The notes under the pieces: model-generated
What the model was told of the DNA's origin: nothing
What the model saw: only the letters and a program-made list of their open reading frames with translations
The model's database searches: none
From: Stagnimonas sp.
GTDB taxonomy: Bacteria; Pseudomonadota; Gammaproteobacteria; Nevskiales; Nevskiaceae
NCBI GenBank assembly: GCA_030652575.1
Contig: JAUSQI010000125.1
Coordinates: 19,240-51,239, forward strand
Reading direction: 5' to 3'
Length of the DNA stretch: 32,000 nucleotides
Shown: positions 1,984-28,229 of the stretch, piece after piece
Numbering within the stretch: the first letter of the stretch is position 1
How the letters are laid out: each line of letters starts with the position of its first letter
Position numbers and translations under genes: made by a program

Positions 1984-2856
1984 CTATTTAACTAGATCGA
2001 ATAGCTCATCGGTAACTGCATTCGGACACTCCATAGGCAGAAAATGGCTGCTATTTGCGATGGAGACGATTTTTGCACCCGGTATGCGACGCCGAAATCT
2101 GCTGTGAACAGCCTGAGGAAATGTCGATCCTTTAGTGCCAGCCAATACTCGGACTTCAACTGGCAGTTGTTTCATCCTGCCCCATGGACTCGACTCCGTG
2201 TGCTGAAAAGTCAGGGACTCCCATTGTGGTGAGCAGGCCAACTGCACACCCCCGCCCTCATGCACTCTGAAGCCTGAATCGACATAAGCGCGCAGCCACT
2301 CATCTGTCCAGCTTCGGAAAGTGGCCTTCGCCCGGTAATTCGCCAACGCATCATCTCGTGAAGGGAATGTTGAACGGCGACGCGCTGCGCCTTTCGCAAG
2401 GCCGATTCTGTCGGCGCGTCCGAGCGTTCGCATCAGCCGGAGTAGCAATCGGCTTCGCAGATCAAGAATCACAGGCTCGCAGAGCAACAGGCCTTTAACT
2501 TTCTCAGGCCGCTGGCATGCTGCAACCAGGCTGCAGGTCGCACCAATGGAGTGGCCTGCGAGCCAGATCGGCTCTGGCGATGCATCGAGCATGGCAACCA
2601 TGTCGCGATAGTAAGTCTCCCACCCGCTGAAACTGTCCCTGACGCCGCTTCCGCTGCTACCTCCATGCCCACGCATGTCCCAGGCGACAACATTCATCTC
2701 TTCGGCGAGCGAATTGAGTATGGGGAGATAGGTGAGCGCGCTAAAGCCGGTTGCATGAGCCCAGTGAAGCGTCGGCCGCGAGATGACGGGCGGGCTGCGC
2801 CAAAGCACCAGAGTCGCGTGATCAAAAGAGGTGAACGATTCTGCCGCGAAAATCAT
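1984..2856 (-). CDS. alpha/beta-fold hydrolase
   Basis: 290 aa. It has the nucleophile elbow GHSIG (LAGHSIGAT), an HGGS oxyanion region, and a C-terminal SSHF histidine motif. The start overlaps the upstream thioesterase stop by 4 nt. Confidence 0.85.
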   Translation of the reverse strand: MIFAAESFTSFDHATLVLWRSPPVISRPTLHWAHATGFSALTYLPILNSLAEEMNVVAWDMRGHGGSSGSGVRDSFSGWETYYRDMVAMLDASPEPIWLAGHSIGATCSLVAACQRPEKVKGLLLCEPVILDLRSRLLLRLMRTLGRADRIGLAKGAARRRSTFPSRDDALANYRAKATFRSWTDEWLRAYVDSGFRVHEGGGVQLACSPQWESLTFQHTESSPWGRMKQLPVEVRVLAGTKGSTFPQAVHSRFRRRIPGAKIVSIANSSHFLPMECPNAVTDELFDLVK

Positions 2857-3851: not shown

Positions 3852-3899
3852 GATGGTTGATCTCCTGCGCGGATCTTTCGATGCCTATTGTAGGCGCAG

Positions 3900-3984
3900 A
3901 TGACTCGACTTTTCTTAAAGTGGTTAGTCTTACTTATCAGTTATGCGAAGACAGTAATTCCAGATCGCCCGGCATGACTCGACT
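3900..3984 (+). repeat. 11-bp direct repeat ATGACTCGACT (3900-3910 and 3974-3984), with a partial third copy ATGACTCAC at 4088-4096
   Basis: Exact copies read directly from the sequence, inside the 417-bp divergent intergenic region. Confidence 0.9.
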
Positions 3985-3991
3985 GCACGCA

Positions 3992-4039
3992 GCCCTACAA
4001 AACAGGCAGAAATTACATGGCGCTATCGACTTGTAGGGC
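3992..4039. repeat. perfect 9-bp inverted repeat GCCCTACAA / TTGTAGGGC with a 30-nt spacer; related TTGTAGG at 3888-3894
   Basis: Read directly from the sequence. The function (operator or RNA hairpin) is unknown. Confidence 0.9.
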
Positions 4040-4268
4040 ATCATCAGCGACCTATAAGACCCCAGACAGAGCTCCGCAGACAACACTATGACTCACGCTG
4101 CGTCTCTGGTCTCTCCGCGCTTATATTGACATAGTGCGTATCTTTACTGGATGCTTGTGAAGAGTCGTAAAGATGAGCGAGCAAAACGACGCAACGCTGT
4201 CTACTTCACCAACAAAAGCTGTCGGCACACGTGCCAGATAGCAACATGCACATGAGGAGAGCACTGGC

Positions 4269-5474
4269 ATGAACCGAAACAAGTTGTTGATCGCTATCTC
4301 AGTCGGGTGTTTGGCGATTCCGCTTCCTGCGTTCACTCAGGACGAAGAAGGCAGCAGCGCAACGGGATCCTCTGGCCTTAGCGCATCTGTTGCGATCGCT
4401 GATCGCTTCTATGTATCGCCGATGGCCACTTACACACTGGCGGACTCTGACCGGGGCACCAAAAACGGGCTGGGCGGCACCGTTGCCATCGGCAAACAGT
4501 TCCAGCAACGATTTGCCTTTGAATTGGCTGCCCATTACGCATCATTCAAGGCTGACGCAAACGGCGCAGACAGTGCGAAGCTGGTGTCGGGTGCTGTGAG
4601 GGGCCTGCTGTTCCCCACCAGTGGTGGTCTTTATGGTCTCGCCGGTCTCGGTTACGGTCGATTCAAGGATCACCCTGGCCTCGATCCGGATTACCGATCC
4701 ATTCTGTGGACCGTCGGCATGGGCTATCTGGTCGGGCCATTCGACCTGGTAGCTACGGGTGTGTCGCTGCGTGCGGAGGTCGCTTTCCGCAGCGACATGC
4801 ACCGTGGTGAACTGACTGCCGACAAGTACAACAATGCTCTCAACGAGGGTGTTGCCAGTCTAGGTCTTCTGATTCCCATCGGTGCAGGCCCCGCACCAGC
4901 GCCCTTGGCTCCCGAACCTGAAGTCGCAAGCGTTGAGGTAGTTCCAGTCGTTGCGCCAACAGACACCGATGGTGATGGCGTGACAGACGATGCGGACCAA
5001 TGTCCGGATACCCCACCGGGAACTGCTGTGGACGCCACTGGTTGTCCGCTGCCCGAGCCAACTCCTCCGCCTGTACCCGATTGCCAGTCACCTGAAAACG
5101 GCGCGCCGGTAAGCCTCGAGGGCTGCAAGGCCGGCGACAAAATTGTGCTTCGGGGTGTGACGTTCGAGTTTGATCGCGCGAATCTCGTGCGCAATGCGAA
5201 GACAATTCTCGATCAGGCTGGGGATGCCTTGCTCAGCGCACAGAACATTCGCGTCGAAATTGCCGGTCATACCGACGCACGTGGCAGCGATGCCTATAAC
5301 TCTAAGCTCTCCAACCAGCGTGCTCAAAGTGTCATGAACTACTTGACCGAACGAGGCATTGCAGCCGACAGGATGTCAGCCAAAGGCTATGGCGAATCAG
5401 AGCCTGTGGCAGACAACGATACCGATGAAGGTCGAGAGCTTAATCGCAGGGTTGAGCTCAAGATTGTGGAGTGA
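4269..5474 (+). CDS. OmpA-family outer-membrane protein (N-terminal beta-barrel, Pro-rich linker with a thrombospondin type-3-like Ca-binding repeat, C-terminal OmpA/peptidoglycan-binding domain)
   Basis: Signal peptide MNRNKLLIAISVGCLAIPLPAFTQ; DTDGDGVTDDADQCPDTP; GHTDARGSDAYNSKLSNQRAQSV...NRRVEL. GAGGAGA RBS before the ATG. Confidence 0.9.
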   Translation: MNRNKLLIAISVGCLAIPLPAFTQDEEGSSATGSSGLSASVAIADRFYVSPMATYTLADSDRGTKNGLGGTVAIGKQFQQRFAFELAAHYASFKADANGADSAKLVSGAVRGLLFPTSGGLYGLAGLGYGRFKDHPGLDPDYRSILWTVGMGYLVGPFDLVATGVSLRAEVAFRSDMHRGELTADKYNNALNEGVASLGLLIPIGAGPAPAPLAPEPEVASVEVVPVVAPTDTDGDGVTDDADQCPDTPPGTAVDATGCPLPEPTPPPVPDCQSPENGAPVSLEGCKAGDKIVLRGVTFEFDRANLVRNAKTILDQAGDALLSAQNIRVEIAGHTDARGSDAYNSKLSNQRAQSVMNYLTERGIAADRMSAKGYGESEPVADNDTDEGRELNRRVELKIVE

Positions 5475-5529
5475 GCGGGCGATCAGCCGTCGGAATTGAC
5501 AAACAAATGTAAATTTTGAGGTGCGAGCA

Positions 5530-7155
5530 ATGACTGAAAATACTTTCGACTACATCATCGTAGGTGGTGGTTCTGCAGGGTGTGCCGCCGCAGCCCGGCT
5601 GAGTGCAGAGAAGGACTGCACGGTTTGTCTTATTGAAGCCGGCCCCGTCGATAACAGCCCGCTCATCCACATGCCGTTGGGCCTGATCGGTCTGATCGGC
5701 AGCCCGAAGGTCAACTGGTGTTTCAACACAGAGCCGGAGGCGCAGTTAAATGGACGCCGCCTGTTCTGGCCAAGGGGCAAGACTTTGGGTGGTTCCAGTT
5801 CTATAAACGCGATGGTCTACATCCGCGGCCATGCAAAGGACTATGACGACTGGGCTGTTCAGAACGGCAGCCAGTGGAGCTATTCGTCATTGCTGAAGGT
5901 GTTCAAGGAACATGAAGACAACGTGCGCGGCGGCTCTTCATTCCACGGCAAGGGCGGCCCATTGAGCGTGTCCGATGTGCTGGAGCCGAATCCACTGGCG
6001 GATGCATTTGTTGAAGCTGGAAAGCAAGTTGGCATTCCTGAAAATCGTGATTTCAATGGTGCCGTGCAAGAAGGCGTCGGCTTTTACCAAGTGACGCAGA
6101 AAAGCGGGCGACGCTGGAGTTCGGCACGCGCCTTTTTGGGTATGGCAGAGGGTCGTCCCAACCTCACCGTCTTCACGGCTGCCAGGGCAACGCGGGTGAT
6201 TCTTGAGGCTCGACGCGCTGTAGGCATCGAAGTCGAGCGTGCGGGACAGCGGCAGGTTTTGCGGGCAAAGAACGAAGTCATCCTGTGTGGCGGCGCGGTC
6301 AATTCGCCGCACCTGCTGTTGCTCTCCGGCATCGGCCCTCGTGAGATGTTGTCGAAGCACGGCATTCCGCTTCAGCATGAGCTGCCTGGCGTCGGCCAGA
6401 ATCTCCAGGACCATCTCGACATGACAGTGATGGTGCGTGATCGCAGCAAGCAGTCCATCGGCCTTGCGCTGTCTTTCATCCCTCGTGCGGTCATCGGTTT
6501 GTTCCGCTATCTGTTCAGCCGCCGCGGGTTTCTTGCTAGTAACGTTTCGGAAAGTGGGGGTTTCGTCAAGCTACATGCATCCTCAGAGCGTCCTGAGCTG
6601 CAACTGCACTTTCTGCCAACTTTCCTGAAAGATCATGGCCGAAAGCTGGTTGCTGGCTATGGCTGTACCTTGCACGTCTGCCAGCTGCGCCCGAAGAGTC
6701 GCGGCTTCATCGGCCTGCAGTCCGCGGATCCATTAGCAGACCCGCTGATCCAACCAAATTATCTGAGTCACCCCGATGACGCGAAAGAGCTAATCGAGGG
6801 CGTCAAACTGGCACGTCGTATCTTCGCAGCCCCAGCATTCAAAAACATCAACGGCGGGGAGACGGAGCCAGGCGCAGAGGTGCGCTCCGATGCGGATATT
6901 CTGGCTAACATCCGCAGCCGCGCTGAGACCATTTACCATCCCGTCGGCACCTGCAAGATGGGTGGGGATGCAATGGCGGTTGTCGATAGTCACCTACGCG
7001 TGCACGGCATCCAGGGTCTACGCGTCGCCGATGCCTCGATCATGCCTACTCTGATTGGAGGCAATACTAATGCCCCCTGCATGGTCATCGGCGAGCAGGC
7101 TGCGCGTATGGCATTGGCGGAACGTGGTGTAGCTGGGCTTCTGAAAGCCGCTTAG
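5530..7155 (+). CDS. GMC-family FAD oxidoreductase (choline/alcohol dehydrogenase, AlkJ-like)
   Basis: FDYIIVGGGSAGCAAAARLS Rossmann motif, GKTLGGSSSINAM, and C-terminal HPVGTCKMG...VVD..LRVHG...LRVADASIMP. ATG at 5530 (GAGGTG RBS) is preferred over the track's GTG at 5521. Confidence 0.9.
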   Translation: MTENTFDYIIVGGGSAGCAAAARLSAEKDCTVCLIEAGPVDNSPLIHMPLGLIGLIGSPKVNWCFNTEPEAQLNGRRLFWPRGKTLGGSSSINAMVYIRGHAKDYDDWAVQNGSQWSYSSLLKVFKEHEDNVRGGSSFHGKGGPLSVSDVLEPNPLADAFVEAGKQVGIPENRDFNGAVQEGVGFYQVTQKSGRRWSSARAFLGMAEGRPNLTVFTAARATRVILEARRAVGIEVERAGQRQVLRAKNEVILCGGAVNSPHLLLLSGIGPREMLSKHGIPLQHELPGVGQNLQDHLDMTVMVRDRSKQSIGLALSFIPRAVIGLFRYLFSRRGFLASNVSESGGFVKLHASSERPELQLHFLPTFLKDHGRKLVAGYGCTLHVCQLRPKSRGFIGLQSADPLADPLIQPNYLSHPDDAKELIEGVKLARRIFAAPAFKNINGGETEPGAEVRSDADILANIRSRAETIYHPVGTCKMGGDAMAVVDSHLRVHGIQGLRVADASIMPTLIGGNTNAPCMVIGEQAARMALAERGVAGLLKAA

Positions 7156-7164
7156 GAGCACTTA

Positions 7165-7614
7165 GTGAGCCCAGGAGCTGCACTGCACCTTGGCCTGCAT
7201 GCGCTGATCCCTGCCCTGCTGGCTTGGCTCTTGTTCCGAGAGCGATTTTTGTGGGCTGCCTGCTGGCTGCTGGCCGGCTGGGGGATAGATATCGATCACC
7301 TACTCGCCACACCCATCTACTCGGCCGGTCGCTGCAGTCTGGGATTCCACCCCCTGCATACACTTCCCGCGATTGTGCTCTACGCCACCCTCATGGTGGC
7401 GAAGCCATTGAGGCTGCTCGGCCTTGGCTTGCTCATCCATATTGCTCTCGACGGAATCGATTGCCTGCGAATGGCCTGCAAGGTTCAAAGTCACAAGATG
7501 TCGATACACCATGAGCATCACTTTCAAGGCAACTCAGTGATGGGGCCAGGTCACCTCATTCTGCTGACTAGCAATCTTTCTGAACAAAGTCATTACGCGA
7601 GGATGCAGGCATGA
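7165..7614 (+). CDS. small polytopic membrane protein, DUF6122-like, with a His-rich C-terminal tail
   Basis: GTG start 6 nt after an AGGAG that overlaps the upstream stop. HLGLHALIPALLAWLLF...IDIDHLLATPIY...C.LGFHPLH matches my recollection of DUF6122. The tail reads SIHHEHHF. The stop overlaps the next start as ATGA. Confidence 0.55.
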   Translation: MSPGAALHLGLHALIPALLAWLLFRERFLWAACWLLAGWGIDIDHLLATPIYSAGRCSLGFHPLHTLPAIVLYATLMVAKPLRLLGLGLLIHIALDGIDCLRMACKVQSHKMSIHHEHHFQGNSVMGPGHLILLTSNLSEQSHYARMQA

Positions 7615-9026
7615 GCAGAAGATTGGTGCCACCACTTGATCTGGGCTGGCTGCTACTTGAAAGCCGCGATACTCCGAATCACGTCGGCGGACTAATGATT
7701 TTCGAGCTCCCACCGGGAGCACCTCCCAGCTATATGCGCGACCTCACTACCCATCTGCGATCGGTGCAGTCGCTGACAAGCCCTTGGAATCTGCATCTTG
7801 CCGCTGGCGCTGTGGCACGACGCCTACCGCTGCTTGAAAATGAAGGCCAGCCCGATCTCGAATATCACGTCCGGCGGCTGGCGTTGCCGCAGCCGGGCGG
7901 CGAACGTGAACTGGGTGAGCTGGTCTCGCGGTTGCACGCCAATTCACTGGATCTGCGCAGGCCGATGTGGGAGTGCTACGTCATCGAAGGTCTGGAGGAA
8001 AATCGCTTCGCGTTGTTTCTCAAAATTCACCACGTCCTGCTCGATGGGGTCGCTGGCATGCGCATCATCTCGCAGGCACTCTCACCTGATCCTACGGTGA
8101 TCGGTTCGCCACCTTGGGGGCATGTCAGCAAGGCCTCCAAAAAGCACAGGAATCCGAGTCGAGACAGCGCGCCAGAGTCTTCCGAGACCAAATCACAGCA
8201 AATTCTGCCCCGTACAGCGCTGGTCAATCGCCGCGGCCTGCTGCTCAAGTCCATCCGTAATCTGTATCCGCTGATACTCCCAAGGTCACAACGCGTAGCG
8301 AATCTGGTTTCCGCTTTCGCGGCACCACATACCGTCTTGAACGGACGCATTACCGGTCAGCGCCGCGTATCAACCCAGTGCGTGCAGCTGGCAAGACTCA
8401 AACGCATTGCAGATCAAGCCGAAGTATCGGTGAATGATGTAGTGCTCGCATTCTGTGGAGGTGGCCTGCGCCGACTACTGGCCGAAGCCGGTGAATTGCC
8501 CGACAAGGCAACCACCGCCTGCATCCCCATCAACGTGAGGCCCGCTGGAGAAATCAGTGTTGGCACTGCAATCAGTTTCGGGTTTGCGGATCTGGCGACT
8601 GACGAGGCTGATCCACTTGAAAGATTAAAGCGAGTGCATGCATCGACTGCGGCACTCAAAAGGCACATCAGTGCCTTGCCACGGACCACTGTTGGCGCGT
8701 TCACGATGGCGGTGATGGGGCCTTATCTTCTTCAGCAGCTGACCGGACTCGGTGGCCGAACACGTCCCATGTTCAACGTCACCATCTCCAATGTGCCCGG
8801 CCCGCAGCAGGAGCTTTACCTGTTTGGCGCCAAGATGCAGGCCATGTATCCGGCATCGGTGCTCTACCACGGCCAAGCCCTGAACATCACTTGCGTGCGC
8901 TATCACGACAATTTGAATTTTGGCTTCACAGCCTGGCGCGATGCGTTGCCGCATGTTCAGCGCATCGCGGTGTATTGCGGGGAAGCACTGGACGAATTGG
9001 AAGCTGCACTCGGCATTGGGAAGTGA
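7611..9026 (+). CDS. wax ester synthase / acyl-CoA:diacylglycerol acyltransferase (WS/DGAT family)
   Basis: 471 aa with the catalytic HHxxxDG motif (HHVLLDGVAGM), N-terminal PLD..WLL.E....HVGGL, and C-terminal NVPGP...LY..GA motifs typical of WS/DGAT. Confidence 0.9.
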   Translation: MSRRLVPPLDLGWLLLESRDTPNHVGGLMIFELPPGAPPSYMRDLTTHLRSVQSLTSPWNLHLAAGAVARRLPLLENEGQPDLEYHVRRLALPQPGGERELGELVSRLHANSLDLRRPMWECYVIEGLEENRFALFLKIHHVLLDGVAGMRIISQALSPDPTVIGSPPWGHVSKASKKHRNPSRDSAPESSETKSQQILPRTALVNRRGLLLKSIRNLYPLILPRSQRVANLVSAFAAPHTVLNGRITGQRRVSTQCVQLARLKRIADQAEVSVNDVVLAFCGGGLRRLLAEAGELPDKATTACIPINVRPAGEISVGTAISFGFADLATDEADPLERLKRVHASTAALKRHISALPRTTVGAFTMAVMGPYLLQQLTGLGGRTRPMFNVTISNVPGPQQELYLFGAKMQAMYPASVLYHGQALNITCVRYHDNLNFGFTAWRDALPHVQRIAVYCGEALDELEAALGIGK

Positions 9027-9059
9027 TGCTGAGCACTTGCCATCAGTTTGTCCTTTAGT

Positions 9060-11693
9060 TCAGCGCAAATGTTTGGCTTGCACACTTGCCGGCAGAAACT
9101 GGTTCTTGTTCATCGCCGAGTTGAAAATCGGAGCCGGTTCTTCTGAAAGCAGGCGGCTCGCGAAGTAGCGACCATCCTTGAGATCGTAGGTGATGACGGG
9201 GAAGCAGTTTGCCGACTGCACGGCATAGTGCGGCAGAACATGCCCCTCCTGGAACCGCCAGAGACGTCCCTCATGGTCGTAGTTCTCAACCAGAACAACG
9301 TTCCAACTGTCCTCATCAAGATAGAAGACTCTGAGTCCAAAGCTGTGCCTCTTTCCACCACGCTCGGTGGCCTCCACGACCCAGACTCGGTGGCGCTCAT
9401 AACGCACGTTGTCGGGATTGAAAAAGTTCGGCGTGAGTTGCTCTGCGTAGGTCTGGCTGCCGTCGGAGAGTCTGTAGGCGTTGTAGGGCAACATCAGCTC
9501 GCGCTTGCCAATCAGTTTCCAGACGTATCGGTCGAACGGGCCGTTATACATGTCGATCATATCGACGAAATACATCGCCTCGGTACCAGGGAATGGCTGG
9601 TCGTAGCCGACTGGCGGGATACGAAAAAGCTTTGGTGAACCCGGCGGCGCCACCCAGATAGCACGCGCGTCTTTCTCTGAGTTGGCGGTTTCGTGTGCCA
9701 GTGCGAGGAAGTTGGCAAGACCGGCACCAGTGAACTTGAGCAGGTAATAAAGCAGGATGTTCTGCGAGGAGATATCGACGGGGTCATCCGTGTTGCCATA
9801 GCGAAAATAGGCTGTCTCGTTAAGTCGATACTCTTGTGTCACCTTGCCAGTTGCAGTGACCACGGCCTGTCTCGACTGCAGCGCCACCGTGTTGCCCCGG
9901 TAGCGTACGCGGTGGTTCCAAAGCGCCTCTACGCCGTTCTCCGGCTTCGGAAATGGGAACCCCAGTCGTGCGTTTTCAAGCGAGTCGGACCCGACCAACC
10001 GTGCCTTACCGATGTTGGCCTCGGAGCTCTTGGTGATGGCTACCGGATAGGACACGCTGCGATGGGTTTTATAGATTGGCATTCGGTAGTCGGGATACCG
10101 TGCGAACAGCGCCTGATGGCCCTTCGAAAGCAGATTCCGGAATTGATCGACATTTCTCGCGGTGATGGTCTGCGTCGGCCGCTCGATCGAGAATGGATCG
10201 ACAAGCCGCTGTCCGGCCCGGAATGAAGCGGGCAGCCGTGCGGGCGAAATGCCGCCAGACCAGGCCGGGATGCTGCCGTCGGCATTGCCCTCAACTTCAG
10301 CACCGATTGCAGTTAGCGGCCCCGGAGCCCGACGGCGAACGGCAGGCATAGAGCCTGAAGTCTCGGCGGGACCATTGTTTCCTGCGACTCCAGCACTGGC
10401 GATTTCGGTGCGCCCCAGCAACCGCCCACTGAGGCTGACCGACTCATCCAGCACCGCAGGGCCCTGGGCAGCGGCAGCGAGCGCCAGCTCGCGCGCCTGA
10501 CCAGATTCGAGGTAACGAATCCAATCCGATGCCAGCTTCTGCTGGCTTGAAAACCCAGCCGCCTGGCGAAAGGCACTCAATGCGCCATCGACATCCGCCT
10601 GCTGATAGCGCACCAATCCAAGATTGAGCATCAGGGTTCCACTGGGTTTTCCCAGTTGCAGCGCCTGGCTCAGCGCAGCTTCTGCGCGTGCGTAATCGCG
10701 CCGCTCGCGCAGCAGCTGCGCCATCTGTTCATAGATTTCTCGGCTTCCCTGGCTGACGGCAAGCTCCTCAAGCACTTTCAACGCCAGCGTTTTCTCTTTG
10801 GCACGCACCCATAGGGCAGCCAGCAGTTTGCGGTTCTCGGCACTGGGCGGCATCAAACCCTGCTGCATCCAAGCCTGAAGCACCGATCCAGCCTCGAAGG
10901 GGGCACCGATCTGGCCAGTCAACAGCACGAGCCGCTCTCTGTCTTCCACACTGCGCAGATATCCCAGGCGATTGGCGACCTCCATCGTCGCTTGAGCGCG
11001 TTCAGAGTTGCCGGCTTTCAGATACAAAGCTGCAAGCTGCATCCAGGCTTCCTTCCGATTAGGGTCGGTTCGCAGTATGGATTCGAGTTCGGTCGCTGCC
11101 TCACCTTCCCGACCCGATCCCATCAGGGCGGCGATCAGCGCCATGCGCCAGTTGGGATTTGGACGTGGCGTGGCGGCAATTCCCTTTTGAAGCAGTGGCA
11201 CCGCCTCCTTGAATCTGCGTTGTTCCAGATAGGCCGCACCGAGTGCCATATGGACTTCAGGACTCGCCTGCCCCGCTTTCACCAGTGCTTCCAGCTGCGG
11301 TACTTTTTGCTTCAGGTTTCCCGATGCCATTGCCAGCGAGGCCAGGTCCTTGCGCAGCAGCTCGGCTGCTGGCCCGGATAGGACATTGAGGTTTAGCGCC
11401 TGCTGTAACAGATGCTGCGCCTTGGAATAGTCCTTCTGCTCAATAGCCTGGCCAGCCAGTTCTTGAAGTAGTAAGGCACGGCCGTAAGGATCGGTAGTGG
11501 ACTTCAGCAGTGTCTGCGCATCAACTGCCTTTAGTGGAAGCTTGGGGATGTCGATCTCCCGCACCTCGCTCTGGTACTGATCGGCCCTCGTGATGCCGCA
11601 AGGCAAAAGCACCATAGCCAAGGTTGTCAGCACAGCAAGCTTTACGTGCTGACGCGCCAGCAGCGGGCTACCAGTTGTAGGCACAGTCTTCAT
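9060..11693 (-). CDS. fusion protein: N-terminal TPR-repeat module (TtpD-like position in a TonB2-type cluster) + C-terminal DUF1329 (LolA-like) domain
   Basis: 877-aa uninterrupted ORF. Residues 1-~405 are a signal or lipoprotein-like leader plus repeated TPR-like helices. Residues ~406-458 form a Gly/Ala/Ser-rich linker. From residue ~459 the sequence LTAIGAEVEGNADGSIPAWSGG...RYPDYRMPIYKTHRS...GFPFPKPENGVEALWNHRVRYRGN reads as a DUF1329 signature. The start overlaps the tonB end by 26 nt. Confidence 0.8.
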   Translation of the reverse strand: MKTVPTTGSPLLARQHVKLAVLTTLAMVLLPCGITRADQYQSEVREIDIPKLPLKAVDAQTLLKSTTDPYGRALLLQELAGQAIEQKDYSKAQHLLQQALNLNVLSGPAAELLRKDLASLAMASGNLKQKVPQLEALVKAGQASPEVHMALGAAYLEQRRFKEAVPLLQKGIAATPRPNPNWRMALIAALMGSGREGEAATELESILRTDPNRKEAWMQLAALYLKAGNSERAQATMEVANRLGYLRSVEDRERLVLLTGQIGAPFEAGSVLQAWMQQGLMPPSAENRKLLAALWVRAKEKTLALKVLEELAVSQGSREIYEQMAQLLRERRDYARAEAALSQALQLGKPSGTLMLNLGLVRYQQADVDGALSAFRQAAGFSSQQKLASDWIRYLESGQARELALAAAAQGPAVLDESVSLSGRLLGRTEIASAGVAGNNGPAETSGSMPAVRRRAPGPLTAIGAEVEGNADGSIPAWSGGISPARLPASFRAGQRLVDPFSIERPTQTITARNVDQFRNLLSKGHQALFARYPDYRMPIYKTHRSVSYPVAITKSSEANIGKARLVGSDSLENARLGFPFPKPENGVEALWNHRVRYRGNTVALQSRQAVVTATGKVTQEYRLNETAYFRYGNTDDPVDISSQNILLYYLLKFTGAGLANFLALAHETANSEKDARAIWVAPPGSPKLFRIPPVGYDQPFPGTEAMYFVDMIDMYNGPFDRYVWKLIGKRELMLPYNAYRLSDGSQTYAEQLTPNFFNPDNVRYERHRVWVVEATERGGKRHSFGLRVFYLDEDSWNVVLVENYDHEGRLWRFQEGHVLPHYAVQSANCFPVITYDLKDGRYFASRLLSEEPAPIFNSAMNKNQFLPASVQAKHLR

Positions 11694-12405
11694 GGTTCAT
11701 CGGCACGCGCTGCTTAACCTCTGCCGCCTTGCCGGTGGCCGAATACAGCCACTTGGAGATGCTCTGCACCGCAGCAGCCTCGAAGACCCCCTTGGGGTCT
11801 GCATCGAGGATGCGCACGTCCTGAACATGACCGTTCGGCATCACCACGAATAGCGCCTCAACCCAGCCGGAGAGCTTCTGCTTGCAGGCCCACTCAGGCA
11901 TTTGCGGGCGCGCCGTAGAGAGCGGCACAAGGGGCTTCCCCTTCCAACCCCGCCCGCCACTACCCACACCGCCGGCACCGTTGCCATTGCCATTGCCACC
12001 TGCACCGTTTCCGCTGCCAAAACCGGAGAATGCACCACCACCCAGTATCCCCTCGCGAGACCCAAACGCCAGCGGGACATTGATGTTGCTGAGATCGACC
12101 GGGGTCAGGGCGACGCTGGGCGCATCCAGCGGAGGCAAGTCAGGCTGACCGAGTGCTGGTGGGGACGCTGGTGGAGGGGGTGGCGCCTCGTCCAACAGGT
12201 CTGGCGGATTGGGTGGCTCTGCTGGCGGTGGCTGATTGCGTGCGATGCTTACCGCATCAATCACCCTCTGCGCGCCGAGCCCCTCGTCATTTGGCGTGCG
12301 AACGAGCCAGCCCAACGCGAGGAACAACAGTGCCGTCAGCAGGATGCTCAAGGCCGAAAGCAGAAACCAGCGCGTCGAAAGCCTCAGGTGAAGATCGGAT
12401 GGCAT
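11668..12405 (-). CDS. tonB: energy transducer TonB
   Basis: N-terminal TM anchor, a Pro-rich spacer (PPPAEPPNPPDLLDEAPPPPPASPP), and a C-terminal TonB domain (ARPQMPEW...GWVEALFVVMPNGHVQDVRILDA). It also carries an unusual Gly/Asn-rich tract. Confidence 0.85.
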   Translation of the reverse strand: MPSDLHLRLSTRWFLLSALSILLTALLFLALGWLVRTPNDEGLGAQRVIDAVSIARNQPPPAEPPNPPDLLDEAPPPPPASPPALGQPDLPPLDAPSVALTPVDLSNINVPLAFGSREGILGGGAFSGFGSGNGAGGNGNGNGAGGVGSGGRGWKGKPLVPLSTARPQMPEWACKQKLSGWVEALFVVMPNGHVQDVRILDADPKGVFEAAAVQSISKWLYSATGKAAEVKQRVPMNHEDCAYNW

Positions 12406-12408: not shown

Positions 12409-12816
12409 TCAATTAGGCGTTGCCGCTACCGAGACATCAGCGACACCCGCGAGACGCGCCTGATCCATGACTTCCACCATCAGTCCCAGTCTTGCGCTCT
12501 GGTCGCCCTGGATCACCACGGCGGCTTTCGGTTTACCACGACGCAGGCGCTCGATCTCGGTGCGCAGGCGGCGGATATCGACGCGCTCGCGGTTAATCCA
12601 GATCTGGTTCTCGGCGGAGATGGCAACGAAGATGCTGGCGCGGTCTTCTTCTTTCGCCGTCTTGGCGGAGGGTTTGTTGACGCGAATTCCAGATTCCTGA
12701 ACGAAGGCAGCTGCAATGATGAAAAAGATCAGCAAGTTCATGACGAAGTCGAGCATCGGCGCGAGGTCGATGCCGGTTTCCTCATTAACAGGATGATTGC
12801 GGCGAAGTTTCATCAC
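12409..12816 (-). CDS. exbD: biopolymer transport protein ExbD/TolR
   Basis: IDLAPMLDFVMNLLIFFII... followed by a periplasmic domain, 135 aa. The track start is GTG at 12816; the ATG at 12813 is an equally plausible start. Confidence 0.9.
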   Translation of the reverse strand: MMKLRRNHPVNEETGIDLAPMLDFVMNLLIFFIIAAAFVQESGIRVNKPSAKTAKEEDRASIFVAISAENQIWINRERVDIRRLRTEIERLRRGKPKAAVVIQGDQSARLGLMVEVMDQARLAGVADVSVAATPN

Positions 12817-12817: not shown

Positions 12818-13342
12818 TCAGGCGGGTGGGATCAGGTCGTTGAGGCGCTCAGTTTCACGCTGTACTCGCGACGTGAAGATGTTGCCGAAAAACAATCCGA
12901 TCACGCTGACCACCAGTCCCGCCATGGTGGCAACCATCGCGTGGGAGATGCCATCGGCCATGGCCCTGGTGTCGCCGCCACGTGTGAAAGCCATCGCATC
13001 AAACACCTGCAACATGCCCATCACAGTGCCGAGCAGGCCAAGCAGCGGGGCCATGGGCACCATGACGCGAATCACTGGCAGGCCAGATTCCAATGCCGCT
13101 CGCAACTGTGAAATCAGCGCTAGGCGGATGCGCTGCGCTGCCCATGAGTGACGATCAACGCGACCTCCCCATTCGGCAAGTGCCTCGGCACGCAATCTCG
13201 GATACACCTTTAACAGAAACCATGCGCGCTCCAGGACTACGGTAATCAGCACGCAGCAGGCAAACAATAACCAGCGTGTTACCCAGCCGCCGGAATCGAG
13301 AAACTCATTGAGGGTTTCGTATGGCACAACGATCGGTTCCAT
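12818..13342 (-). CDS. exbB: MotA/TolQ/ExbB proton-channel protein (short ExbB)
   Basis: Three TM segments with LLGLLGTVMGM..F and AMADGISHAMVATMAGL motifs. ATG at 13342 (MEPIVVPYE) is chosen because the track's longer ORF would overlap the upstream gene by 62 nt. Confidence 0.9.
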   Translation of the reverse strand: MEPIVVPYETLNEFLDSGGWVTRWLLFACCVLITVVLERAWFLLKVYPRLRAEALAEWGGRVDRHSWAAQRIRLALISQLRAALESGLPVIRVMVPMAPLLGLLGTVMGMLQVFDAMAFTRGGDTRAMADGISHAMVATMAGLVVSVIGLFFGNIFTSRVQRETERLNDLIPPA

Positions 13343-13349
13343 CAGCAAG

Positions 13350-14699
13350 CTAAGCACTGGATTTCCCCATTGCTTCCAGTTGTCGAGCCAGCAGCCCCGC
13401 AGCCTGCTCATCCAGCACTTGGATGAGTGTTCGTGATCGCGCTGTGATGAAGGTATTTACGAACAGCAGCGGGATGGCGATCATCAATCCGAGAGCCGTG
13501 GCGATCATCGCCCGCGAAATCCCTTCGGCCATCAACTTGGGATCGCTGGCACCAGCCTCGGTGATGACTTGGAAGGTGATGATCATGCCAACCACCGTGC
13601 CAAGCAGCCCCAGCAATGGCCCCGCTGCGACGATCATCCGCAGCAGCGATTGGAACCGTTCGAGTTTGGGGGTTTCTCGCAATACCGCTTCTGACAATCG
13701 CGTCTCCAGAACCTCAGGGTCTTGTCCGGTCGGATCACCCTTGAGGCTGAGAAGCACGCGGCCCAGCGGGTTGTCGTGATTCGGCCTCGTGATGTCGCGC
13801 AATTGATGTCCTACCCTTCGGCCCACCATCACCAGAAAGCCGAACTGCCACGTGGCGACGACTGCACCCAGCACGCCGATTGCGATGATCACATAACCTA
13901 CCTCACCGCCTTGATGGAGACGATCCGCCAGCGTGGGCCGATCGGCGATCAGGCGAAGCAAATCACCTCGCGAGGGATCAACCAGAACGTCGTGCAAACC
14001 CTCAGTGGCTTCGGTGAAGGCCTTTGCCAGTTCGATGCCATCCTCAGGCTGGCGCTCCAAAACCGACAGCTCGCCGGTCTCGGGCTGGAGTATCAGGTGC
14101 CCCTCTGCAGTCAACGCTGAAAATTGACCAATGCGGACGACATCGGTCTGGATTTTTTCACCCAGCACATCCCGCACCGTGGTTCTGAAGCGACTGATAC
14201 GCCCACTTTCAGCGGCCTCCTGAGCATAGAGGAACCACAGGCGCTCGATCTCAGTGATGTTGGGAATTTCGTCTGCTGCGGCGAGTTTATCGAGCAGCGG
14301 CAGGCGAGCGGGAAACTGAGGTGTAGTCAAAGCATGTGCTAGTTGGCCGCGGAACTCGCCGGCGGACTGCGCGATGCCTGCATAGATTTGACCTGTGTCA
14401 CCCACCTGCTCAGCGAGCTGCTTCTTCAGCTGGGCAACTTCCTGCTGACGCGCCGCAAAGCGCGCCTTGACGGCACTCACTCGCGTGTTTGCCGCTCCCA
14501 AGTCTGCCTCCGCCTTGGCGAGCAACGCGGCCTGCTCGTTCTTGTTGCGGAGGAATCGTGCCTCCCGCTCGCCATTCAACTTGCCAGAGGCCTGCGAGGA
14601 CTGCGTGATGTCACGCAGCAGCGCATCCATACCCGACGTCGCCTGGGCCTGAACCTGGCAGCTTGCAGCGAGCAGAGTCGCCAGTAAAAGACGTCTCAT
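13350..14699 (-). CDS. long MotA/TolQ/ExbB-family protein with a large N-terminal periplasmic coiled-coil domain (TtpC-like)
   Basis: 449 aa with a signal peptide, a ~250-aa periplasmic region, and a C-terminal ExbB core (GPLLGLLGTVVGMIITF, LMAEGISRAMIATALGL). Its size and position match TtpC of Vibrio TonB2 clusters. Confidence 0.8.
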   Translation of the reverse strand: MRRLLLATLLAASCQVQAQATSGMDALLRDITQSSQASGKLNGEREARFLRNKNEQAALLAKAEADLGAANTRVSAVKARFAARQQEVAQLKKQLAEQVGDTGQIYAGIAQSAGEFRGQLAHALTTPQFPARLPLLDKLAAADEIPNITEIERLWFLYAQEAAESGRISRFRTTVRDVLGEKIQTDVVRIGQFSALTAEGHLILQPETGELSVLERQPEDGIELAKAFTEATEGLHDVLVDPSRGDLLRLIADRPTLADRLHQGGEVGYVIIAIGVLGAVVATWQFGFLVMVGRRVGHQLRDITRPNHDNPLGRVLLSLKGDPTGQDPEVLETRLSEAVLRETPKLERFQSLLRMIVAAGPLLGLLGTVVGMIITFQVITEAGASDPKLMAEGISRAMIATALGLMIAIPLLFVNTFITARSRTLIQVLDEQAAGLLARQLEAMGKSSA

Positions 14700-15472
14700 G
14701 GTCTCGCACCTGCAGCGAGAATCGGCAAACGCAGCAAATCGGGTGCCGCAGTTTCACGCGCCATTCTCAAACCGAGGCGGATCTGGCTCGCATATTCGTA
14801 AGGCAGCACGGCCCATGTTTTTGAAGAAGAGTCCCAAATACCGCAGCGCTTGCCATCCATCGACAGGTAATAAAGCGCCGCCCTGCCCACGCGCAATACA
14901 TGAACTGTGCGCTCGTCGATCTCCCCCTGCTCGATGCCTATCGAGCGGCCGTATTCGGCTTCAATCTGCCAAGCTTCCAAGGCTTTCTTGAACTTCTCTG
15001 CACGATCGGCAGCTGGATCGGCAATCAGCTTCTTGAGCGCCTGCAATCGCTCACGTCGCTCAATCAACAGGAAAGGCGCGTCTAACGCAATGAACTTTTC
15101 AAGCCCCTGAACCATGCGAGCCAGCAGGGGCGATAGCTCTCGTTCAGTGCGTTCCAGTTCACCCAACTGCCGTTGGAGTCCGGTGCGCTGCGCGTCGAGA
15201 CTGGCGGCCTGCTCCTCAAGCTGCTGCGCGTAGGCCGTGAGCTGCTGGGACTGCCAACTGGCTGACAGGTAGCGCTCAAGAAGAGTACGCGTCTCGCCGT
15301 CGAGCTGATCGATACGCTGCTGCGAAGCTCGCGAAGCTCTGTTCGCCGTCAACGTCTCGTCGATGGCCTTGGATGCCGTGCCTTGCGCAGCTGCAGCAAC
15401 CGCGTATCCCCCCAAGAGCAGGGCAGCCAAAACGCAGTAGAGGTGCGGTTTATGGCCGCGCGATGTGGACAA
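14696..15472 (-). CDS. DUF3450-family periplasmic coiled-coil protein (TtpB-like)
   Basis: 258 aa. TTG start 7 nt after a GAGGAGA RBS, then a signal peptide, a long coiled coil, and a C-terminal RVGRAALYYLSMDG...W motif typical of DUF3450. The stop overlaps the next ATG as ATGA. Confidence 0.75.
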   Translation of the reverse strand: MSTSRGHKPHLYCVLAALLLGGYAVAAAAQGTASKAIDETLTANRASRASQQRIDQLDGETRTLLERYLSASWQSQQLTAYAQQLEEQAASLDAQRTGLQRQLGELERTERELSPLLARMVQGLEKFIALDAPFLLIERRERLQALKKLIADPAADRAEKFKKALEAWQIEAEYGRSIGIEQGEIDERTVHVLRVGRAALYYLSMDGKRCGIWDSSSKTWAVLPYEYASQIRLGLRMARETAAPDLLRLPILAAGARP

Positions 15473-15601
15473 AGCTGTTCTCTCCTCAATGTTTGCGTAC
15501 CGGGGGCGAAGCCATCTGCCGCCCGGTTACACAATGCCTGTGCGCTATTAGCTGCAATCCGCTGAAATCCTCGCAGAGGGCCACGAACACGAATGCAAAT
15601 A

Positions 15602-15623
15602 ATATAGTGCGTAGTGACTATAT
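15602..15623. promoter_or_regulatory. operator-like inverted repeat ATATAGT-N8-ACTATAT in the DUF1302/DUF3450 intergenic region
   Basis: Perfect 7-bp arms read directly from the sequence. They lie within a cluster of (C)ATAGTG motifs. The function is not established. Confidence 0.4.
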
Positions 15624-15681
15624 CTACATTTTCACTCAAATAACAGCCGCCTCTACCCGTCGCGAAGTCACTATGGTAGAG

Positions 15682-18174
15682 CTAGAACTGGTATTTGAAG
15701 TAGAAGCCCAGATTGTCTCTGTCACGGTATAGGTTGTTTGACGAGCCACCAAAGAAGGTGTTGTAGGCGACGGTGAACGACAGCGCCTTTTCGTAGCGTG
15801 TCTCCAGCAGAAGATTCAGGCTTTTTCGACCCTGCACGAAGTTGCCTGCGGGGCCCGGTGAATTGCCTTGAATATCGTGCATGAGAATGAAGATGGGCTG
15901 CACGCTGATCGACGGCAGCACGGACTCGTAACTGATGCGTCCAACCACTCGATAGCCCCAGGAGAAAGCATCTGCAAACGCGCCACGTCGCGCCTGGAAA
16001 GGATTGAATCGCAAGCCATCTGGGCCGACTGTGCAACTTGGGTTGGTCGAACAGGCAAGGCGAGAACCATCGGCACCACTACCGTCCGCTCCAGCACTGG
16101 CGTGAGTGGTAGCGGTTAGAGGACCTTCGATTTGCAACTTATCGAAATCAGGCATGTTGAGTACGTGCGTCGCGGCCAGTTCGTACAGCAGGATGACCTG
16201 ATCGGCACGAATCCAATTTTCGGAAGCTCCTAATACCTGCGTGGCTCCGATGTTGTATTGCGCAACCTTGCCTGGAATCCAGCCCTGGATATAGCTATTC
16301 GGCGGGTTCTCGCCGATCGTTCCGCCCCGGAATGGCGTGATGAAATTCGGAAATGAGCGTGCGGAGCCTGGTGCTGCACCAATCACCAGATTGACCGTAT
16401 CGGCATACGGGTTGTTGCCGTTGGCATCCGTGAAGTCATTGCCGTCATACACCACATAGCCACCAGCTTCATTGAAACCCAAGCCAGCTTGAGAGCCTGC
16501 ACAGCCGACACTGGCATCGTGACAACTGGTCAAGACCGGACCGAAGGAGGCAAAAGCAAGGTCAATCAATGCAACCTGCAATGGCAGGTTTGGTCGATAG
16601 GCTACTTCACCTTGCAGTGATAAATCCCCGACCGTGGTGGTGAAACTGAAGCCAAACAGCTTGCGGTCTTCTGGGTATTCGAGCTGGATCGCAGCCGTGT
16701 CCAGCGGCACTGCATCTGACGCTGGCTGCCCCGGCTGCGGCAGCAGCAGATTCACCAATCCACCTAGCGCCGAAGGATCTGCAGCAACGCCGAGATCGCC
16801 CAATACCTGTGGGCGTTGTGCCGTCAGGCTGATCAGATCAGCGCTGATCTGGGAGTTGGCACTCGGTGCGGTAAGCGGCAGATTGGGGCAGACATCCAGG
16901 AATTCCAGTGTGTTCCGTGCATCGATTCCGCGGGCGTTGCCAAGCCGACGGGCACAACTGGCATTGGTCGAGAAGAAGCTGACGTACGGCAATTTTGAGT
17001 GGTAGTTCATGTAGTACAGACTGAGCTCGGTTCCGTTGTTGAGCTCTTCTGCGTAGTACTTGAGCGAGACGCCGTACTGGCCCTGGCTTCGAGCGTTCTT
17101 GTCTGGCCGACGATCCAATGTCAGCGTCGTCGGTGTGATCAGCGTCAAAGGATTATCCAGCGGAGCACCAACCTTATCCGGGTCATCAGCCGCCCCACCA
17201 AAAGCGGCGTTGACGGTGTCACGCAGATCGCCAGTACCGATATCCACGAACGAGAAGTAGGCACCTGGCGTGGGAATTTCCACAGGCTGCCATTCGTATT
17301 GATAGAAGGCCTCCATGCTGACACCGCCAAAAAGGGATGTGCCGGCACGCACGCTGCCGATGGGAACAAAAAGCTCTTCCAGCAAACCAAAACCAAGTCT
17401 GTAGAGGCTATTGGCATTAACTGGCTGCGCCTGATTGAGGCTGTTGATAACTGCTACGGTGCTTTGGCCCCAGTTCACACTTTGTCGCCCGACTCGGAAG
17501 GTTAATTCACGGTCGCCTGGTAGCGATGCCGTACCGAAGAAGTTGGCATCAAGCAAATCAAATCGCAGACCGATCTGTTGTGCTTCGTCGTTCGCTCTTT
17601 CACTCCGCACTGATGCACCAGGGCCATACACCCGGGGTAGATAGCGGTTGGAGGTGGTGGGACGATCTGCAATACCGACCTGCTCTACATTGTCGGCCGT
17701 AATGAGATTGGGACGGTACTCACGAAAGTCGAATCCATTGACTGGATCAGCAATCCCAATGCCGCGCACGAAGAATCCATAGTTTCCAAAGCTCACCGTC
17801 AGATCTTGCGATAGCTTGAAAGGGGCCTGGGTGATATCGCCCTTGTCGTAATTGAGATTGCCATCATCAAAATTGACCGAGGCCATTCCAGGCGAACGGG
17901 TCAGCTGCTGCGCAGGGAAGTTTTGCAGGCGATGCAGGCCCTGACAGGATTGATATTGGCCGGAGCACACGGTCGGATTTAGGTTTGCCTTGCCCACCAA
18001 ATCGTCCGCACGATCCTCGATTCGCCAAGATGCACCGAAGGTTACGGTATTGTTGAGAACGGCAGATACCGCAGTGTCCCCCGCTTGAAAATTGAAGTCG
18101 ACGGCCAGTGCTTTCTGCGCAAGAGTGACAAGCGCAGCTGCGCAGGCGATATGGTGCAGGTTCAAACGTCGCAT
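15682..18174 (-). CDS. DUF1302-family outer-membrane beta-barrel protein (unusually long, 830 aa)
   Basis: Signal peptide MRRLNLHHIACAAALVTLAQKALA. It also has FRVGRQSVNWGQST, a C-terminal FFGG...NLYRDRDNLGFYFKYQF, and a terminal aromatic residue typical of OMPs. ATG at 18174 is chosen; the track's 881-aa version would overlap the upstream gene. Confidence 0.8.
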   Translation of the reverse strand: MRRLNLHHIACAAALVTLAQKALAVDFNFQAGDTAVSAVLNNTVTFGASWRIEDRADDLVGKANLNPTVCSGQYQSCQGLHRLQNFPAQQLTRSPGMASVNFDDGNLNYDKGDITQAPFKLSQDLTVSFGNYGFFVRGIGIADPVNGFDFREYRPNLITADNVEQVGIADRPTTSNRYLPRVYGPGASVRSERANDEAQQIGLRFDLLDANFFGTASLPGDRELTFRVGRQSVNWGQSTVAVINSLNQAQPVNANSLYRLGFGLLEELFVPIGSVRAGTSLFGGVSMEAFYQYEWQPVEIPTPGAYFSFVDIGTGDLRDTVNAAFGGAADDPDKVGAPLDNPLTLITPTTLTLDRRPDKNARSQGQYGVSLKYYAEELNNGTELSLYYMNYHSKLPYVSFFSTNASCARRLGNARGIDARNTLEFLDVCPNLPLTAPSANSQISADLISLTAQRPQVLGDLGVAADPSALGGLVNLLLPQPGQPASDAVPLDTAAIQLEYPEDRKLFGFSFTTTVGDLSLQGEVAYRPNLPLQVALIDLAFASFGPVLTSCHDASVGCAGSQAGLGFNEAGGYVVYDGNDFTDANGNNPYADTVNLVIGAAPGSARSFPNFITPFRGGTIGENPPNSYIQGWIPGKVAQYNIGATQVLGASENWIRADQVILLYELAATHVLNMPDFDKLQIEGPLTATTHASAGADGSGADGSRLACSTNPSCTVGPDGLRFNPFQARRGAFADAFSWGYRVVGRISYESVLPSISVQPIFILMHDIQGNSPGPAGNFVQGRKSLNLLLETRYEKALSFTVAYNTFFGGSSNNLYRDRDNLGFYFKYQF

Positions 18175-18727: not shown

Positions 18728-18764
18728 GCGTGAGGTCCTTGTGTAAGGCTGTGGAAAAAGAGGG

Positions 18765-21722: not shown

Positions 21723-21730
21723 CGCAGGGG

Positions 21731-28228: not shown

Positions 28229-28229
28229 G

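Follow-up and report, generated by a model that had tools for sequence, protein, structure and literature searches.

Does the covalent joining of a Ton motor subunit to a DUF1329 domain mean that the motor and the DUF1302 outer-membrane barrel system work as one machine? The question is raised by a stretch of 32,000 nucleotides (nt) from Stagnimonas sp. (contig JAUSQI010000125.1; the whole stretch is called the window below), in which positions 9060..11693 of the minus strand are occupied by one ATG-started open reading frame (ORF) of 877 amino acids (aa) plus stop, with zero internal stops, encoding a TtpD-type tetratricopeptide repeat (TPR) protein fused to a DUF1329 domain (PF07044). A first-pass annotation had described the gene as an unbroken ORF made up of a TPR part, a low-complexity Gly/Ala/Ser linker and a DUF1329 part, and had taken the fusion as direct evidence that the Ton motor and the DUF1302 system form one machine. 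The description is borne out, by Pfam as well as by AlphaFold2 (AF2), and the motifs quoted for it, GNADGSIPAWSGG, RYPDYRMPIYKTHRS and LWNHRVRYRGN, are each found in the ORF; the conclusion drawn from it is an over-reach. The fusion ties TtpD to DUF1329, not the Ton motor to the DUF1302 barrel system, and the evidence for a single Ton–DUF1302 machine is limited.

Domain scanning with hidden Markov models returned TPR families and a full PF07044 match, and structure prediction, using a model built from 123 homologues (mean predicted local distance difference test, pLDDT, 85.4), returned two folded domains separated by a disordered linker. The protein begins with a predicted Sec signal peptide (residues 1-37, 11583..11693 on the minus strand, as for all parts of the gene), which AF2 models as a hydrophobic helix at residues 11-33 and which ends in a conserved A-x-A before DQY in alignment A1. 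Residues 34-54 have pLDDT below 50 and include the motif DQYQSEVRE of the mature N-terminus (residues 38-46, 11556..11582), predicted to be disordered, in which Q39 and Y40 show conservation of at least 90%, up to invariance, in alignments A1 and A3; this segment may be a short docking motif. At the same site, D-Q-Y-[RQK]-S-E-V-R-E is near-invariant in the fused proteins and the nearest stand-alone TtpDs (P0124, P0141, P0142), and remoter TtpDs carry L-S-x-x-T-Y-[KR]-x-L. The TtpD-type TPR solenoid spans residues 38-409 (10467..11582), of which residues 59-409 are modelled as about 21 helices with pLDDT of about 90 or more, and closes on a W391-I-R-Y-L395 motif. After it come a flexible tether rich in Ala, Gly and Ser (residues ~410-459, 10317..10466; pLDDT below 50 at residues 428-454) and the DUF1329/LolA-like domain (residues 460-877, 9063..10316), which has no signal peptide of its own and is predicted as a confident beta-rich domain over residues 461-877, with pLDDT mostly above 90. 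The predicted template modelling score of the whole model is low (0.57), which fits an undefined orientation of the TPR and DUF1329 domains relative to each other. Measured from L395 to T461, the linker of the 123 homologues is 52-150 residues long (median 58), consists of 21% Ala, 12% Gly and 10% Ser, and holds the partly conserved elements YLESGxAREQA and LSxRLLG.

The ATG at 11693 is the most plausible start of the gene, because no alternative in-frame start yields a normal signal peptide. Given this start, the gene overlaps the tonB stop by 26 nt, as had been annotated, and the corresponding overlap in relatives is 1-29 nt, which suggests translational coupling.

The N-terminal half had been assigned to the slot that TtpD has after tonB in Vibrio-type clusters, and both gene order and end-to-end homology to post-tonB TPR proteins agree with this. 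In the TonB2 and TonB3 systems of Vibrio, TtpB2 is a DUF3450 protein and TtpD a TPR protein of 425 aa, and the TonB2 system of V. vulnificus does not work without TtpD2 (PMC6957404). Reference clusters were recovered by tblastn with the DUF3450 protein of the window from a Vibrio campbellii replicon and a Pseudoalteromonas chromid; that of V. campbellii (L005) encodes, in this order, a TonB-dependent transporter (TBDT), TtpB, TtpC, ExbB, ExbD and TonB, with a TPR protein of 390 aa last. Several Pfam TPR families match residues ~66-383 of the fusion, and its TPR half aligns collinearly with the post-tonB TPR proteins of V. campbellii (24% identity over 317 aa, E 2e-8) and of Pseudoalteromonas (26% over 290 aa, E 4e-22), both alignments closing on W-[IV]-[KR]-Y-[LV] a few residues before the C-termini of the stand-alone proteins. 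An hhalign comparison of two profiles, one built from fused and near-fused TPR halves and the other from three context-verified TtpD proteins, of Vibrio, Pseudoalteromonas and Thalassotalea, gave a probability of 100% (E 1.4e-41) over 336 collinear columns, which include the C-terminal W-x-x-Y-L motif. Hundreds of relatives of about 395-430 aa match the TPR half end to end in a single stretch. Only generic TPR models, far under their cut-offs, matched in NCBIfam, which holds no specific model for TtpB, TtpD, DUF1302 or DUF1329. The fusion differs from a stand-alone, secreted, all-TPR protein of about 390-430 aa in that 468 residues follow residue 409; it closes a ttpB-ttpC-exbB-exbD-tonB-ttpD cluster, as the fusion does in every fused relative whose upstream sequence is available. 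Judged by position and sequence, the N-terminal half is a genuine and complete TtpD homologue.

The C-terminal half is, as had been annotated, DUF1329. PF07044 matches residues 509-870 with an E-value of 3e-105 and 353 bits (cut-off 23.1) over model positions 1-366 of 368, and homology to stand-alone DUF1329 proteins, at 36-42% identity, begins at residue 460, just past the end of their signal peptides, so that a complete mature DUF1329 is retained. A PDB search by sequence gave TPR matches only, relatives of the DUF1329 domain being detectable solely by fold. Foldseek searches of the PDB with the C-terminal domain found LolA3 of P. gingivalis (9tp6, E 2.5e-12, target TM-score 0.78), 4z48, which is annotated as a DUF1329 family protein, and the LolA-like structures 3bk5 and 3buu; the N-terminal half matched TPR superhelices. 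Profile match and predicted fold identify the C-terminal half as a full-length DUF1329 of LolA-like fold, in which, as the alignments read, the signal peptide has in effect been swapped for TtpD and a tether. It differs from the usual stand-alone protein of about 450 aa that has its own signal peptide and lies beside DUF1302, the DUF1302 gene of the window being five genes away.

The annotation had itself raised the possibility that an assembly error or a frameshift in the linker had created the fusion, and this is refuted; nothing was found in its favour. A single frame crosses the linker in all 31 independent loci having both halves (31/31), contigs 99-100% identical to the window were assembled from two different metagenome samples (L099, L100), and the same fused architecture is found on large contigs (5.4 and 0.8 Mb) that have been assigned to named strains or species of Solimonas. 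A homologue search of 5.8 billion proteins yielded 193 matches (90% clusters), and the best 120 of these all combine TPR with PF07044 in proteins of 822-988 aa at 49-99% identity. The fusion occurs in Nevskiaceae, Salinisphaeraceae and Oceanococcaceae, and its named sources include Panacagrimonas, Solimonas, Nevskia, Hydrocarboniphaga, Fontimonas, Sinimarinibacterium and Stenotrophobium. A fused protein of 879 aa in Salinisphaera was reached via one partial match, and the fusions of Oceanococcus and Spectribacter were added through genome and metagenome scans. Searching the TPR half against 1.8 billion representatives at 50% identity turned up about 16 that are fused, the lowest TPR identity among them being 30%. 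On these comparisons the fusion is old and fixed.

As to its origin, the main clade of fused DUF1329 domains is monophyletic in a neighbour-joining tree, built without support values, and its sister group consists of stand-alone paralogues of Nevskiales and Oceanococcaceae, including stand-alone DUF1329 neighbours of fusion loci. The fusion is likely to have arisen by capture of a local DUF1329 gene in a common ancestor of Nevskiaceae, Salinisphaeraceae and Oceanococcaceae. The most divergent fused forms, the P0205/P0281/P0179 group (about 26% identity), may represent a second, independent fusion; the P0205 group retains more of the stand-alone DUF1329 pattern than the main fused clade does. 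A search for the split state, which the annotation had proposed, succeeded in part. Locus L091 represents an unfused state, in which a stand-alone TtpD of 384 aa (P0124, the closest stand-alone protein, 44% identical) follows ttpB-ttpC-exbB-exbD-tonB. A string of MerR, desaturase, DUF1302 and DUF1329 genes is divergent from the ttpB promoter region there, and the DUF1329 of this string (38% identity) is an ordinary paralogue rather than the product of a fission. A ttpD gene followed directly by an orthologous DUF1329 gene was not found among the examined loci, and the DUF1329 downstream of the fusion in L016 groups with stand-alone paralogues, outside the fused clade of the same tree.

The genes upstream of the fusion, all on the minus strand, complete the motor: tonB (11668..12405, 245 aa, PF03544 TonB_C), exbD (12409..12816, 135 aa, PF02472, E 1.6e-26), exbB (12818..13411, an ORF of 197 aa, called as 179-197 aa in relatives, PF01618), a ttpC-type gene for a large MotA/ExbB protein of 449 aa (13350..14699, PF01618 at residues 324-430), which is 33-36% identical to its counterparts in Vibrio, Pseudoalteromonas and Thalassotalea, and a ttpB-type gene for a DUF3450 protein of 258 aa (14696..15472, PF11932, E 1.2e-70). 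In every fused locus that comes with upstream sequence, the fusion directly follows Ton motor genes, the most divergent forms at about 26% identity included, and the full ttpB-ttpC-exbB-exbD-tonB set is present wherever the flank is long enough. Small departures from this layout are an extra ORF of 177 aa between exbD and tonB in L003 (8762-9295) and a distance of about 1.3 kb between tonB and the fusion in L103 and L104 (~8700-10000).

The gene product is a secreted periplasmic two-domain protein, in which a complete TtpD (about 370 residues) and a complete DUF1329 (about 420 residues) are joined by a tether of at least 52 residues, and its TtpD half belongs to a six-gene motor of the TonB2/TonB3 type whose members are TtpB and TtpC, ExbB and ExbD, TonB and TtpD. 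Our general model is that of a Ton motor subunit with a tethered LolA-like adaptor for the trafficking of hydrophobic molecules, a proposal whose chances we consider even. The TPR half would fill the role of TtpD inside the motor driven by the proton motive force, and the tether would allow the LolA-like module to reach the outer membrane, where it could dock on an outer-membrane protein, bind hydrophobic cargo, or both, so that the motor would be coupled to a DUF1302/DUF1329/RND-type route for hydrophobic molecules. The likeliest outer-membrane partner in the window's genus would be the DUF1302 barrel, since it occupies the position of the TBDT in the Vibrio cluster, a DUF1302–DUF1329 complex has been predicted by AlphaFold-Multimer with an interface score (ipTM) of 0.84 (PMC13499233), and its gene lies beside an alkane-type copper monooxygenase island. 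Among the deepest fused lineages, the operon is joined instead to a LolA_like gene and an MMPL/RND transporter with a domain binding cyclic nucleotide monophosphate (cNMP), an association that suggests a shared theme, the trafficking of lipids or hydrophobic substrates across the envelope. Specific docking of the fused domain on DUF1302 is a tentative idea that we think somewhat more likely to be wrong than right. The more far-reaching proposal that a TonB2-type motor serves a client other than a TBDT, the TtpD-tethered LolA-like domain energising a plug-less pathway through DUF1302-type barrels and/or the MMPL–LolA_like pair in Nevskiaceae, Salinisphaeraceae and Oceanococcaceae, is distinctly unlikely.

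The DUF1302 gene of the window (15682..18174, minus strand, PF06980, E 4e-152) encodes 830 aa counted from M52 of an ORF that extends to 18327; M52 is most probably the start, as called in relatives, and it would yield a signal peptide MRRLNLHH...ALA cleaved before VDFNF. DUF1302 lies directly upstream of the operon only in the window's genus (L087, L089 and L102, 82-100% identity). A looser linkage of DUF1302 or DUF1329 genes to the operon recurs, in the window's genus, in the divergent pair of L091, in the form of downstream DUF1329 genes, and in L107. In nine fused loci, one or two extra DUF1329 genes stand alone 0.1-4 kb downstream and have no DUF1302 beside them (among these loci are L001, 15703-17055; L011, 14770-17552; L016, 12652-14016; L018, 11351-12580; also L095, L098, L105 and L107), and in the tree the extra DUF1329s of six loci fall into the subfamily that is partnered by the DUF1302s most closely related to that of the window. 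DUF2505 follows the extra DUF1329 in L001 and L016, and an ABC1 kinase gene is nearby in L001 and L015. Canonical DUF1302–DUF1329 loci from many phyla, nearly all of them with DUF1302 alongside, have Ton genes in 0 of about 65 cases, and about 38 of the 65 have an RND/MMPL gene 1-3 kb downstream, which matches the DUF1302–DUF1329–BNR–RND set known from published fitness data, in which DUF1302 and DUF1329 have fatty-ester phenotypes and are cofit with an RND exporter. No BNR/Ycf48-like or COG1033 RND gene was found among the scanned window ORFs, and the only window ORFs of at least 600 aa are the fusion, DUF1302 and a CopD-cytochrome c fusion.

Several observations weigh against a route through DUF1302, and some against the general model. 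The other fused loci with flanks have no DUF1302 in the examined sequence except L107, where it lies 6.6 kb downstream, and the few adjacencies are statistically uncompelling because each genome has many paralogues. The subfamily of the window's DUF1302 is found elsewhere with stand-alone DUF1329s of its own (L025, L050, L062); in L025 the Solimonas flava orthologue (73% identity) adjoins one. A Plug domain (PF07715) was not found on the window's DUF1302, and its mature N-terminus, VDFNFQAGDTAVSAVLNNTVTFGASWR, is patterned like that of most compared DUF1302s, which have no Ton genes nearby. The stretch 'DTAVSAV' was considered as a TonB box and rejected, as it sits in a family-wide N-terminal segment; DUF1302 is not a TBDT with Plug and TonB box of the kind expected as a client of the motor. 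The fused domain itself has changed. Measured against 89 positions that are at least 90% conserved in 76 stand-alone DUF1329 sequences, the fused clade keeps 68 and has lost 21, and 17 positions are fixed in the fused clade only. In a block at residues ~655-712 (9558..9731), the 99-100% conserved P-x-R-x-A-G ... R-x-A-W ... R-[VI]-R-R-A-P is replaced, in all fused proteins of the main clade, by ... I-W ... K-[LM]-F-R-I-P-P-V-G-Y-D-Q-P-F-P-G; part of the block (residues 698-715) is a low-confidence loop with low pLDDT. A changed partner or ligand is plausible from this comparison, and from the replaced block and the 21 lost positions together the fused domain may no longer bind the canonical partner. 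Adjacency to MMPL was seen in about 4 of 13 evaluable lineages, the window not among them. Neither a Fur box nor any other regulatory pointer to the substrate was found: the best match to a Fur box upstream of ttpB scores 10/19 in the window and 9-11/19 in fused relatives, against a background of 8-12 with a median of 10. Confinement of the adjacency to the window's genus, the lack of Ton genes at canonical pairs, the missing plug and the remodelled block are what make the inference of one machine an over-reach.

If DUF1302 is set aside, the domain could be a tethered chaperone that takes hydrophobic cargo released by a TBDT and exchanges it with MMPL/RND, fusion to TtpD keeping the chaperone at the site of Ton-driven release. 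That most fused lineages are without DUF1302 in the examined sequence, that a surface block invariant in the family has been remodelled, and that the fold is LolA-like would all be expected under this explanation. It also draws on the MMPL transporters. In Oceanococcus (L016, 2713-6304) a LolA_like gene (PF17131) is followed by a gene for an MMPL/RND protein of 908 aa that has a cNMP-binding domain at its C-terminal end; the stop of this gene and the start of ttpB overlap by 4 nt, and then come the motor genes, the fusion, a stand-alone DUF1329 within about 100 nt, and DUF2505. The LolA_like–MMPL pair is likewise immediately upstream of ttpB in Spectribacter (L015, 2061-5744), so that the deepest fused lineages have these genes directly upstream of ttpB, and an orthologous MMPL gene lies upstream in the Nevskiaceae loci L001 (1-3216, at a distance of about 2.8 kb), L097, L105 and L010 (about 4 kb), of which only L001 has a confirmed LolA_like gene. 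Thalassospira (L108; Thalassospira marina pCSC3H3) has a LolA_like–MMPL module without Ton genes, which precedes a gene for a protein of 464 aa that has no Pfam match and ends in ...YSF like an outer-membrane barrel; no homologue of this putative barrel was found in the window or any fetched locus. Taken together, these arrangements suggest that the motor was ancestrally united with an MMPL-type transporter and a LolA-like carrier in one supra-operon. However, within about 6 kb neither the window's genus nor about nine further lineages have the pair, no annotated fused locus has a TBDT gene, and the chaperone leaves unaccounted for the DUF1302 adjacency in the window's genus, L091 and L107, and we regard it as unlikely.

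The same transporters would be read differently if the motor powered the delivery or insertion of a lipid or other envelope component carried on LolA-like domains, with MMPL as the inner-membrane exporter and without any nutrient uptake, in an outer-membrane maintenance machine of Tol-Pal-like logic. Tol-Pal operons likewise end with a gene for a TPR protein (CpoB/YbgF). An MMPL/sterol-sensing-type transporter is coupled to ttpB in L016, the chromosomal position is conserved and housekeeping-like, with a rhodanese gene upstream of the operon in L001 and L003, the missing Fur box would be in keeping with such a role, and Price et al. have proposed that DUF1302, DUF1329, BNR and RND proteins export a cell-wall component. 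Yet the homology of the motor is to TonB_C, ExbB/ExbD and TtpB/C/D, which in Vibrio are components of siderophore uptake, and export itself is without direct evidence; we consider this explanation improbable. It could finally be that the fusion is neutral, a DUF1329 gene downstream of ttpD having been joined to it through loss of the stop and the signal peptide, and that the two halves keep separate jobs and the link has no mechanistic meaning. Such an origin would agree with the frequent presence of a stand-alone DUF1329 just downstream of the fusion, as in L016, and with the sister-group position of the local paralogues. Retention in all sampled members at 26-100% identity, a tether that is never shorter than 52 residues and has conserved motifs, the 17 clade-specific fixed residues, the dependence of DUF1329 export on the signal peptide of the TtpD half, and the possible second fusion in the P0205/P0281/P0179 group all speak against it, and make it highly improbable.

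The 209 nt between DUF1302 and ttpB (15473..15681, minus strand) contain a promoter-like site, TAGATA-16-TATTAT (15626-15599), overlapped by a perfect 7-bp inverted repeat, ATATAGT-N8-ACTATAT (15602-15623), that is loosely conserved in relatives, and a hairpin rich in GC (15499-15527, about -15 kcal/mol), which L087, L089 and L102 also have despite changes in its sequence. The promoter site is the one suitably placed, yet the overall count in the promoter scan is below chance expectation. The terminator scan found none after DUF1302, Rfam gave no match on the ttpB leader, and base composition showed no island boundary in GC at the DUF1302/ttpB junction.

Directly upstream of DUF1302 lies an operon for a copper membrane monooxygenase (CuMMO) in xmoCAB order (18765-24742, minus strand), with AmoC (23957-24742), AmoA (22970-23869), subunit B (21731-22960), an ORF of 246 aa without a Pfam match (21126-21866), CopC (20725-21129) and the CopD-cytochrome c fusion (18765-20732), all on the same strand. 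The order CopC, CopD/cytochrome c, DUF1302 is conserved in L087 and L102, and an ORF of about 150 aa between CopD-cytochrome c and DUF1302 (18254-18730, minus strand) is conserved in L087 and L089 and has no significant Pfam match (weak DUF4399, E 0.004). CuMMOs of unknown function have been reported from Solimonas aquatica (PMC6215863). On both sides the flanks (1984-9026 and 25023-31222) hold genes of a hydrocarbon or fatty-acid route: on one side a GMC oxidoreductase (5521-7155), DUF6122, a WS/DGAT wax-ester synthase (7611-9026) that is convergent with the fusion, a tandem thioesterase and an alpha/beta hydrolase, and on the other an acyl-CoA synthetase, an aldehyde dehydrogenase, a thiolase-like protein, a MaoC-type dehydratase and an SDR. 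The gene string lies between the CuMMO/CopCD cluster and alcohol, aldehyde, acyl-CoA and wax-ester genes; WS/DGAT is downstream of the fusion in L001 and L105 as well. Two transposase fragments, a phage-type integrase and KfrA_N are found about 7 kb past the fusion in L087 (82% identical; 20044-22628), and the alkane island and operon region may border a mobile element in the window's genus.

How does the locus compare with known systems? The motor part is, by family assignment, a member of the TonB2/TonB3-type family and the C-terminal part a member of PF07044. With the Vibrio TonB2/TonB3 clusters (PMC6957404) the window shares an identical gene order, the families DUF3450, large MotA_ExbB, ExbB, ExbD, TonB_C and TPR, a TPR gene whose start overlaps or abuts the tonB stop, and full-length homology of the TPR half. 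An outer-membrane protein gene precedes ttpB in V. campbellii (L005) and in the published TonB3 operon, as it does in the window's genus, but in the window this gene encodes a plug-less DUF1302 instead of a TonB-dependent receptor; TtpD has the added tether and DUF1329, there is no Fur box, and the host is a freshwater or soil Nevskiaceae-like gammaproteobacterium. Canonical DUF1302–DUF1329(–BNR–RND) clusters, such as PP_0765/PP_0766 of P. putida and Sama_1588-1591 of Shewanella, have in common with the window the full PF07044 LolA-like domain, the 68 of 89 conserved positions and a DUF1302 in the gene string, whereas the fused domain is without its own signal peptide, mostly without adjacent DUF1302 and has the remodelled block, and the window is without BNR and a canonical RND gene. 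LolA/LolB-type carriers (LolA3 9tp6, 3bk5, 4z48) show the same fold over about 240-290 residues (E 2.5e-12 to 4.7e-10, target TM-score 0.68-0.78), but the fused domain has only 13-17% identity to them, is larger (about 420 aa) and is tethered to a motor subunit rather than freely diffusing. Tol-Pal with CpoB/YbgF has a motor of the ExbBD/TolQR type driven by the proton motive force and an operon-terminal periplasmic TPR protein that reaches partners near the outer membrane, whereas the components of the window are Ton-type and not Tol-type. The LolA_like (PF17131) and MMPL/RND(cNMP) module of Thalassospira marina pCSC3H3 consists of the same two genes that directly precede ttpB in Oceanococcus and Spectribacter and that some Nevskiaceae have 2.8-4 kb upstream; unlike the fused loci it has no Ton genes and is followed by the putative barrel, and the window lacks the module.

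The combination of TtpD and DUF1329 is not described in the searchable literature, and in databases the fused proteins go only by the labels 'DUF1329 domain-containing protein' and 'tetratricopeptide repeat protein'. The literature assigns the ttpB, ttpC and ttpD genes to vibrios and some marine bacteria; in Nevskiaceae-like bacteria they belong to the core genes, which extends the TtpB/C/D motors from marine vibrios to freshwater and soil Nevskiaceae, in the window with the operon inside an alkane-type oxidation island. Gene fusions are suggestive only, and specific coupling to DUF1302 is weakly supported. Nevertheless, a fusion fixed over deep divergence is a testable physical link that places a LolA-like module within tether reach of a Ton motor, and natural experiments are at hand in the comparison of fused loci with the unfused L091, and of operons that have MMPL, DUF1302 or neither of the two. 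TtpD is essential for the TonB2 system of Vibrio while its molecular role is obscure, and the fusion offers a clue to it; DUF1302 and DUF1329 are widespread 'dark' envelope proteins for which export of wall components, esterase activity and uptake of hydrophobic or aromatic compounds are competing hypotheses. If a motor of the TonB2 type does energise a plug-less pathway through its tethered LolA-like domain, this would be a new class of Ton-dependent envelope transport, with the adaptor in the motor rather than in the receptor, and it would give a first mechanistic role to TtpD and to DUF1329.

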